Shown here piece by piece: positions 1,708 to 8,596 of a DNA stretch of 31,970 nt. The notes beneath the pieces are model-generated. The model did no database searches, was not told where the DNA came from, and saw only the letters and a program-made list of their open reading frames with translations. The translations under genes were made by a program, and so were the position numbers. The first letter of the stretch is position 1. Every line of letters begins with the position of its first letter. This DNA comes from a virus (taxonomy: Duplodnaviria > Heunggongvirae > Uroviricota > Caudoviricetes), in IMG/VR virus record IMGVR_UViG_2537562192_000019; one strand, written 5' to 3'.

Positions 1708-1957
1708 GGTAATATTAAATCGGAACATTTACATCGCGGAATGTAAAATTTAAATAAAAAGGACTCTTCCATGAGCCAAAATTCCTGAAATCTTAAGGGT
1801 AAGATAAAAGGTCTTAATCAGAATGACACGTTTTATTAATAAATAAAGCTATTCTTTCATTGCTGTGTTTTTCTTTACAAAAGTAATCCTTGCTATGGGT
1901 GGTTAATCATGCGTTAATGGTGTTCTGGTTTGTTACAAATTTATCTGAAGCAGTCAT

Positions 1958-1966
1958 TGTTATAAT
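1958..1966 (+). promoter_or_regulatory. Candidate extended -10 promoter (TGtTATAAT) for the cold-shock gene, implying a ~100-nt 5' UTR
   Basis: TGTTATAAT at 1958..1966 in an AT-rich region about 105 nt upstream of the csp ATG; csp-family genes characteristically have long 5' UTRs. No good -35 was found, which is acceptable for extended -10 promoters. Confidence 0.4.
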
Positions 1967-2069
1967 TTTATTATTTGTACCTCTTGAGATTTCCTTGTTG
2001 GTTTTTCTCTCTGATATTTTTTTTCGGACCATTCTGCCCAAGGGCTAATTTCTTCAAAAGGTAATAATT

Positions 2070-2282
2070 ATGTCTAACAAAATGACTGGTTTAGTAAAAT
2101 GGTTTAACCCTGAAAAAGGTTTTGGTTTCATCACGCCGAAAGATGGCAGCAAAGATGTGTTTGTCCATTTCTCAGCAATTCAGAGCAACGATTTCAAAAC
2201 ATTAACTGAGAATCAGGAAGTTGAATTTGGTATTGAGAACGGACCTAAAGGTCCTGCCGCTGTTCATGTAGTGGCGCTTTGA
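2070..2282 (+). CDS. cspI: Cold-shock protein, CspA family (CspI/CspB-like), 70 aa
   Basis: [41 protein letters not shown]... carries the RNP1-like KGFGFI and RNP2-like VFVHF motifs of cold-shock domain proteins; GGTAA Shine-Dalgarno upstream. Confidence 0.92.
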
Positions 2283-2488
2283 GGTAGACAATATTACAAA
2301 CCATATTCACTTTAGATGCCCGTGTTGTCATGGTTCCCAGTATAGAACATCATCTTTTGATGTTTCTGACATGAATCCTTTCGGGGCAAAATGTATCTTT
2401 TGTAAATCAATGATGATTACATTTGATAATATTTCACAATACTTAAATGCTAGCCGTCTGTCGTTGGATTTAAAAAAGTGAAAATGAA

Positions 2489-2508
2489 GGCTCCTTCGGG
2501 AGCTTTTT
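2489..2508 (+). terminator. Rho-independent terminator (GGCUCC-UUCG-GGAGC stem-loop followed by U5)
   Basis: GCTCC / TTCG loop / GGAGC followed by TTTTT at 2504..2508, immediately after a TGA at 2478..2480. Confidence 0.6.
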
Positions 2509-2553
2509 GGCTTGGTGTCTATTCGATGGATACTCACATACTACGGTAACATC

Positions 2554-2784
2554 ATGAAAAAAATCATAGTTTTTTTTAACTCTGAACCAGCAGTGGTAGT
2601 GCCAGCGATGACTGGAGTTAACACCATCATGCGTGAATATCCAAATGGCGAAAAAACACACCTTACTGTAATGGCCGCAGGGTTTCCATCTCTGACCGGA
2701 GATCATAAAGTCATTTATGTAGCCGCGGATCGACATGTTACTTCAGAAGAAATTCTGGAAGCAGCAATAAGGCTCTTGAGTTGA
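2554..2784 (+). CDS. Hypothetical small protein (76 aa), prophage moron region
   Basis: ORF 2512..2784 trimmed to the ATG at 2554 (MKKIIVFFNSEPAVVVPAMTG...). No recognisable motif; weak Shine-Dalgarno. Coding status uncertain. Confidence 0.35.
   Translation: MKKIIVFFNSEPAVVVPAMTGVNTIMREYPNGEKTHLTVMAAGFPSLTGDHKVIYVAADRHVTSEEILEAAIRLLS

Positions 2785-4890: not shown

Positions 4891-4916
<26 letters not shown>
4371..4916 (+). CDS. nu1: Terminase small subunit gpNu1 (181 aa)
   Basis: MEVNKKQLADIFGASIRTIQNWQEQGMPVLRGGGKGNEVLYD... essentially the lambda Nu1 sequence, with its N-terminal winged-HTH region; downstream of cos. Confidence 0.95.

Positions 4917-8596
<3,680 letters not shown>

Follow-up and report, generated by a model that had tools for sequence, protein, structure and literature searches.

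ynfQ, a conserved small gene behind cspI in a lambdoid prophage, and its probable AUU initiation codon

According to Hecht et al., infC and pcnB are the sole genes with confirmed AUU starts in E. coli. The codon is a weak one. Reporter expression from AUU was six- to eight-fold below that obtained with AUG or GUG (PMC3592434), and the initiation factor IF3 discriminates against it (PMC5499595). In the cold the IF3-to-ribosome ratio goes up and the fidelity function of the factor is reportedly weaker (PMC5499595). In vitro, AUU mRNAs nevertheless competed worse, not better, at low temperature (PMC5499595), which counts against a cold-favoured initiation at AUU. At short gaps between cistrons about half of the initiation on the second cistron is due to re-initiating ribosomes (PMC3592434).

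In E. coli K-12, two small genes of the YmcF-like family are found behind genes of cold-shock proteins. The chromosomal ymcF (b4723) lies downstream of cspG and is the paralogue of the prophage-borne ynfQ (b4724); the cassette cspG-ymcF-ymcE-gnsA has a layout like that of the cspI-ynfQ locus, with the same 10-nt gap. In published transcriptomes the ynfQ mRNA moves together with that of cspI (PMC11228462; PMC11728337), and ynfN also changes along with both of them. A review of 2026 modelled YnfQ as rubredoxin-like. The literature on ynfQ and ymcF that we searched contains no paper mapping the N-terminus of YnfQ or YmcF or detecting either protein, and the same search extended to PF23641 found neither a functional study nor an experimental validation of the AUU start; ynfQ is not mentioned in the E. 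coli start-site profiling papers searched. The name itself is subject to a collision. The 'YnfQ' of VanOrsdel et al. 2018 (PMC6001520) is a different protein of 37 residues, encoded at K-12 coordinate 1632890 between ydfJ and ydfK, and is apparently the product of the gene named ynfT in a 2024 gene list, while ynfQ in the present work always means b4724, with 62 residues.

The locus considered here lies in a stretch of viral DNA of 31,970 nucleotides (IMG/VR virus record IMGVR_UViG_2537562192_000019), referred to below as the window. The original prediction, made from the letters of this sequence, had pointed to a reading frame from position 2317 as an unannotated, zinc-ribbon-like gene that has no canonical start codon and is followed by a terminator, and had offered a lost start, an unusual start, recoding or chance as possible explanations. 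The features discussed below are collected in Table 1.

Table 1. Features of the cspI-ynfQ region, in window coordinates
Feature	Position	Strand	Basis and details
cspA-type thermoregulator RNA	1924..2309	+	Rfam RF01766, 115 bits against a gathering threshold of 78, E 2.9e-30, model 1-428 of 428
cspI, cold-shock protein, first cistron	2070..2282	+	ORF listing; RefSeq annotation of identical DNA
Shine-Dalgarno-like GAGG	2281..2284	+	overlaps the cspI stop TGA (2280-2282); 8 nt before ATT
Probable AUU (ATT) initiation codon of ynfQ	2293..2295	+	RefSeq, including K-12 b4724; comparative alignment
ynfQ CDS, YmcF-like Cys4 small protein	2293..2481	+	62 codons and TGA; Pfam PF23641, homologue clusters, dN/dS
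First putative metal knuckle, C9-P10-C11-C12	2317..2328	+	C9, P10 and C12 invariant in 34 sequences
Second putative metal knuckle, C34-I35-F36-C37	2392..2403	+	C37 invariant, C34 in at least 90% of 34 sequences
ynfR, 21-codon small ORF	2484..2549	+	RefSeq; begins 2 nt after the ynfQ stop, runs through the hairpin
Intrinsic-terminator-like hairpin	2486..2508	+	9-bp stem 2486-2494/2499-2507, UUCG loop, U-run 2504-2508 (5 U)
ynfN	2554..2784	+	RefSeq; PHROG 3425 (phrog_3425), E 7e-54

Identity and conservation of the gene

The frame from 2317 translates as CPCCHGSQYRTSSFDVSDMNPFGAKCIFCKSMMITFDNISQYLNASRLSLDLKK. Upstream it is open only to 2272, where the TAG at 2269-2271 bounds it, and a scan of the window sequence from 2272 to the first Cys codon returned no ATG, GTG or TTG in this frame, as had been claimed. 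The ORF listing likewise bears out that the ATG at 2371 is the first canonical in-frame start and that its use would cost the protein its first Cys pair. Several particulars have to be corrected. The stop codon TGA occupies 2479-2481 and not 2478-2480; the out-of-frame ATG, which does run into a stop after 9 codons, is located at 2316-2318 instead of 2315; and the two CxxC pairs, both of which are present, are separated by 21 residues and not by 22 (CPCC-(21)-CIFC, from C12 to C34 of 62 aa).

The frame cannot be called unannotated, since the K-12 RefSeq record (b4724) and Pfam already carry the gene. On DNA identical to the window RefSeq annotates ynfQ as WP_071524604.1, over the interval given in Table 1, with an ATT start 24 nt upstream of 2317; the K-12 gene has the same ATT and an identical start-region sequence. 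The products are entered in RefSeq as 'cold shock small protein YmcF' or 'cold-shock protein'. The Pfam family PF23641 (YmcF-like) matches residues 1-62 on profile positions 1-62 with 109.9 bits (E 6.9e-32), the cut-off being 27 bits. A megablast search of complete E. coli genomes found the segment 2060-2800 at a coverage of at least 80% in 2113 genomes, the RefSeq gene order on the matches being cspI, ynfQ, ynfR, ynfN, and 1519 E. coli records contain this 741-base segment around ynfQ with an identity of 99% or more. By these sequence matches, window positions 2293-2481 are ynfQ, a known and catalogued E. coli prophage gene.

Among 5.8 billion proteins searched, 131 homologue clusters were found, nearly all of them from Enterobacteriaceae. 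The family is narrow: when 1.84 billion cluster representatives were searched exhaustively with a profile, just 42 clusters came up, and no informative distant relative of ynfQ was among them. For the comparative analysis 80 loci were fetched from species-representative enterobacterial genomes; the 75 that possess the core motif, together with the window, make up the 76 loci analysed, and a 34-member protein alignment was used for residue conservation. Over codons 2-46 of the 76 loci the mean pS was 0.78, which means that synonymous sites are saturated, against a mean pN of 0.10, and the median dN/dS was 0.058 where it was measurable. Variable sites are distributed over the first, second and third codon positions as 20/15/45. 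Chance and pseudogene decay are therefore excluded, because the synonymous sites are saturated and the replacement sites are not (dN/dS ~0.06). Absence of constraint at the amino-acid level among relatives had been named as the sign that would speak against the gene; the pS and pN values reveal such constraint. Judging from the substitution pattern, ynfQ is a real protein-coding gene under strong purifying selection.

The opposite strand of the same region also contains an ORF (2328-2537, minus strand, 69 aa), which the record of phage HannyBb (PP925841.1, locus L085, positions 1245-1445) lists as a hypothetical protein, ynfQ itself being missed. One might thus take the antisense ORF for the real gene, or the plus-strand frame for a chance ORF. 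It is the plus-strand frame, however, that has the Pfam match, the variable sites are overwhelmingly at the third positions of this frame, and the antisense ORF, which extends across the terminator hairpin, is backed by no protein family. This reading may be practically dismissed, and the suggestion of chance made in the original prediction falls with it, given the Pfam score, the dN/dS and the conservation of the ATT across genera described below.

HannyBb is one of several cases of this kind, since the ynfQ-like gene is unannotated in 5 of the 9 phage records that carry it. Mis-annotation of ynfQ in phages stems from the ATT start, because gene callers require a canonical one; database proteins beginning with MLWRFKVTII are the result of callers extending the ynfQ-like gene into csp.

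The initiation codon

The conserved part of the protein extends upstream of the Cys pair at which the original frame was drawn. The 34 sequences share 16 invariant columns, among them F7, C9, P10, C12, G14, Q16, R18, S20, D23, N28, P29, G31, F36, C37 and K38, and the segment I5-H6-F7-R8, before the first Cys, is conserved, so YnfQ must begin before 2317. The same alignment bears on the possibility that translation starts from ATG 2371, the sole canonical start in the frame, which would yield a protein of 36 residues and leave the upstream part untranslated. Conservation in the protein is highest over residues 5-38, which take in the first Cys pair, and 12 of the 16 invariant columns precede M27. 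Position 27 is variable, with K, R, G, S, Q, N or E in place of M in relatives, and the dominance of third-position variation is maintained throughout codons 1-46. An internal start is, on these grounds, hardly credible.

In the alignment of the 76 loci, 56 show ATT at the 2293 codon, 16 show ATG and the remaining 4 ATC, unlike codons 2-4, which vary freely. ATT or ATC followed by an intact 62-codon frame is found in Escherichia, Citrobacter, Salmonella, Kosakonia, Yokenella, Scandinavium, Atlantibacter and others, and about a fifth of the species have ATG as the start codon. Neither the window nor 22 of the 75 other loci contain a canonical start between the upstream stop and the Cys pair, and in all these loci the frame opens just 9-57 nt upstream of the aligned codon (21 nt in the window). 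A Shine-Dalgarno-like motif of at least 4 nt is placed 5-8 nt before the aligned start in all 69 distinct loci; it usually reads TAAGG or TGAGG and includes the stop codon of the preceding csp gene. This stop lies 9-10 nt upstream of the ynfQ-like start in at least 49 of the 76 loci, and 4 nt upstream in the ATG lineages of Klebsiella and Raoultella, as read by eye. With respect to the features expected of an AUU gene, ynfQ has GAGG 8 nt upstream of the codon and no canonical in-frame alternative before 2371. The share of ATT at codon 1 relative to ATC and ATA (49/53) is only modestly above that at internal Ile codons (139/198), and the loci are phylogenetically related. The best reading of the comparative data is that ynfQ translation would start at AUU 2293. 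Of the explanations initially offered, an unusual start was the right one: the start in RefSeq is ATT 2293, and the comparative data back the same codon.

A lost start was another of these explanations, and it may be conceived in two ways, as a decaying pseudogene or as an indel near 2300-2345 that hides the true ATG. The frame does have no in-frame canonical start, and an ATG is found just one base out of frame at 2316. The sequence of the start region is, however, the same in K-12 and in the other Qin-type loci retrieved, which argues against a homopolymer indel at 2300-2345, as does the near-identity of the 741 bases among the 1519 records. The pseudogene variant is contradicted by the ATT or ATC with an intact 62-codon frame across genera and by the low dN/dS of ~0.06 combined with synonymous saturation. 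We consider either variant scarcely tenable.

Recoding deserves more attention, as the end of cspI resembles the programmed frameshift site of prfB. Positions 2277-2283 read CTT TGA G, and the +1 frame of cspI, open from 2272, is that of ynfQ; from UUU it runs through GAG GUA GAC AAU AUU straight into ynfQ, so that a CspI-YnfQ fusion could be produced by a prfB-like +1 shift at the end of cspI. The RF2 site CUU UGA C shares its shift-prone core with CUU UGA G, and CTT followed by a stop codon in the +1 frame relation is present in 10 of 39 distinct csp-adjacent loci. Thus cspI has the site and the frame of a prfB-type frameshift; what it does not have are the upstream stimulator and the conservation. 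There is no Shine-Dalgarno-like element 3 nt upstream of CUU (GTAGTGGCG), and the one that does exist is downstream, where it is placed for initiation. CTT TGA occurs in only 4 of the 39 distinct loci, and the endings of the others (CTC TAA, CGC TAA, CGT TGA, GTA TAA) cannot slip in this way. The six loci with a 9-nt gap, which belong to Kosakonia and relatives, show no change of frame between csp and the ymcF-like gene. Finally, Klebsiella and Raoultella have ATG at the very same codon, and in Pseudescherichia the ATT persists although the csp ORF is missing. Family-wide support for a recoded gene was not found among these 39 loci, and a fusion by frameshifting appears very improbable also for the Qin-type locus.

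Folding of the cspI-ynfQ junction (2262-2330) revealed no structure beyond that of shuffled controls (z +0.13), so nothing points to a structure that would hide the ynfQ start or lay it open.

The cspI transcript and a possible role of the AUU codon

The match to the thermoregulator RNA model spans the long 5' UTR of cspI together with its coding region and ends inside the first ynfQ codons. The consensus promoter scan found no convincing promoter before ynfQ, only one weak internal match, which is consistent with co-transcription with cspI. Genes of the ynfQ type lie directly downstream of a cspA-family gene, the gap after cspI in the window being 10 nt. In Pseudescherichia (locus L019, positions 1483-1509, and also L020-L027 and L049) a csp-like leader and an ATT-started ymcF-like gene are kept and the csp ORF is absent; in loci of the L019 type it is replaced by an 8-codon mini-ORF, ATGAAAAAAGGATACTATTATTACTAA, the stop codon of which overlaps the first codons of the ymcF-like gene.

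The terminator noted initially after the frame is supported both by folding and by comparison. The 42-nt stretch 2479-2520, which includes the hairpin, folds with -14 kcal/mol (z = -2.65 against shuffles), the base of the stem being formed by G-U and A-U pairs. The K-12 hairpin has 6 U and -12.4 kcal/mol, as against 5 U and -14 kcal/mol for the 42-nt stretch of the window. The consensus scan listed a terminator on the minus strand only and missed it on the plus strand, probably because the stem extension used by the scan consumes part of the 5-U run. A stem followed by a T-run and beginning no more than 13 nt after the stop codon was found in 40 of 70 distinct homologous loci. The stems vary by lineage (GGCTCC/GGAGCC, GGCCCC/GGGGCC, CAGGTCAG/CTGACCTG), which speaks for a terminator conserved as a structure and not as a sequence.

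The small gene ynfR spans this hairpin. SPA-tagged YnfR was detected in K-12, with a strong rise after cold shock (PMC6001520), and since a gene that runs through the hairpin yields a tagged product, only some of the transcripts can be terminated at this point. Residue 9 of YnfR is W in the window and L in K-12; the T-to-G change that gives W9 also cuts the U-run of the terminator from 6 to 5. Among the loci fetched ynfR is limited to those of the Qin type, and it therefore looks evolutionarily young. The following gene, ynfN, is annotated by PGAP with 76 aa in most genomes, the phrog_3425 profile covering all 76 residues; the K-12 reference has a 51-aa form (1637954-1638109), which corresponds to ATG 2629 of the window.

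These observations may be united as follows. Given the thermoregulator at 1924-2309, the absence of a convincing promoter before ynfQ and the co-varying mRNAs, we read ynfQ as the second cistron of a cold-inducible mRNA that begins with cspI and carries a predicted cspA-type RNA thermosensor in its 5' part. AUU 2293 would be read by the initiator tRNA as fMet, being placed by GAGG, with the cspI stop 10 nt upstream; initiation would probably be coupled to cspI translation, ribosomes fresh from termination on cspI accounting for a part of it. YnfQ may then be made in small amounts, mainly when the cspI mRNA is abundant and translated, i.e. after cold shock. Such an output is expected because AUU is weak, because IF3 discriminates against it and because the gene stands behind the very heavily translated cspI. 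The weak coupled start most plausibly would keep YnfQ at a low ratio to CspI and confine it to periods of heavy cspI translation. The hairpin with its U-run (2486-2508) would end most of the transcripts, and read-through would yield ynfR and ynfN. Identity, selection, the ATT/ATG conservation, the Shine-Dalgarno element, the adjacency to csp and the terminator come directly from the present analysis, and the rest of the scheme we infer. As a whole, the explanation of ynfQ as a real, AUU-started second cistron of the cspI mRNA with a coupled weak start and a terminator behind it is very probably right.

One may go a step further and suppose that the AUU codon of ynfQ and ymcF is a conserved regulatory device, gated by the fidelity function of IF3, coupled to csp, active in cold acclimation only and holding the product at a fixed low ratio to Csp. 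We put this forward as a rather doubtful proposal. If it were true, the natural genes of E. coli that start with AUU would number four, ynfQ and ymcF being the third and fourth.

The YnfQ protein and comparison with known systems

At the level of motifs, the supposed zinc ribbon withstood the comparison: all four Cys residues are nearly invariant, and even the most divergent relatives preserve C9, C12, C34 and C37, but not C11 and H13. C11 is replaced there, giving CPKC, CPTC or CPSC, while CIFCK is retained in every divergent relative fetched. YnfQ may thus be described as a 62-residue Cys4 zinc-ribbon-like protein, with support at the motif level, that probably binds zinc via C9, C12, C34 and C37; the zinc-ribbon fold as such is weakly supported. 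A profile search of the PDB gave no solved structure related by sequence, the marginal hits being a UvrA zinc finger and the Rieske box II (E of at least 0.027).

The latter resemblance is curious in itself. The segment CPCCHGSQY (residues 9-17, 2317-2343) nearly equals the Rieske box II CPCHGSQY of cytochrome b6f PetC (PDB E 0.06-0.9). A Rieske-like or Fe-S reading of the segment was dropped because C11 and H13 vary among the divergent relatives, and the resemblance is probably a coincidental likeness of metal knuckles.

YnfQ is mildly basic (pI 8.7). This property and the fixed linkage to csp genes led us to guess, with low confidence, that its partner might be RNA or the translation or transcription machinery, i.e. 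the ribosome or the polymerase.

The gene is real and curious, and it is not new; what remains is a small testable question and not a discovery. For genome scanning it offers a calibration case, in which a conserved gene under selection seems startless since it starts with ATT. It also draws attention to the pairing of the gene of a cold-shock RNA chaperone with that of a small Cys4 protein behind a weak AUU start, a pairing that is conserved in a large part of the Enterobacteriaceae and occurs in lambdoid phages as well.

The closest known relative of the locus is the Qin-type ynfQ of K-12. The window protein is 100% identical over 62 residues to those of the best-matching loci (L004-L007), and at the DNA level the K-12 gene differs from that of the window by one synonymous coding change, GCC to GCT. 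The two share the ATT start, the 10-nt gap after a cspA-family gene and the downstream genes ynfR, ynfN and gnsB, so that in the gene itself there is no substantial difference. The surrounding prophages do differ, as the window ynfQ resides in a more complete lambdoid prophage with full terminase and head genes, unlike the Qin remnant of K-12, which we take to have no full set of either.

The terminase of this prophage presents a separate observation. The ORF of the large subunit (4891-6858) contains a run of 7 A at 6609-6615, where an intact homologue has 8 A, which shifts the frame of the last ~67 residues (DGRKKYCGTAK... in place of DGRKKILWDSKK...). The ORF thus comprises 655 aa, compared with 641 in the unshifted form. 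Among the matches listed, the 4 E. coli genomes with 100% identity to the 501-base query have the A7 form, and the next-best matches (99.8%) are one base longer. Either the prophage has truly acquired an inactivating mutation here, or the missing A is an artefact of homopolymer assembly.

Among protein families, the ECs_2282 family of putative zinc-binding proteins (NCBIfam NF047912) likewise comprises small proteins with CxxC that are encoded in enterobacterial prophages. YnfQ does not belong to it: the match is weak, covering residues 5-49 with 17.8 bits, far under the cut-off of 37 bits. It was the only one returned by the NCBIfam search, in which nothing rose above threshold, and the PHROGs search assigned YnfQ to no family. 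Cys4 zinc-ribbon and rubredoxin-like miniproteins, such as the TFIIE-alpha zinc finger and the zinc modules of tRNA synthetases, are also among the closest known systems.

With respect to initiation, the counterparts are infC and pcnB. The AUU of ynfQ has a Shine-Dalgarno element in front of it, and with infC the gene shares the location of the site a few nt after the stop codon of the preceding cistron and the inducibility by cold. The comparison has its bounds: infC and pcnB are the two AUU genes confirmed by experiment, whereas for ynfQ and ymcF the AUU is supported by annotation and comparison. In infC the AUU was experimentally shown to serve the autoregulation of IF3.
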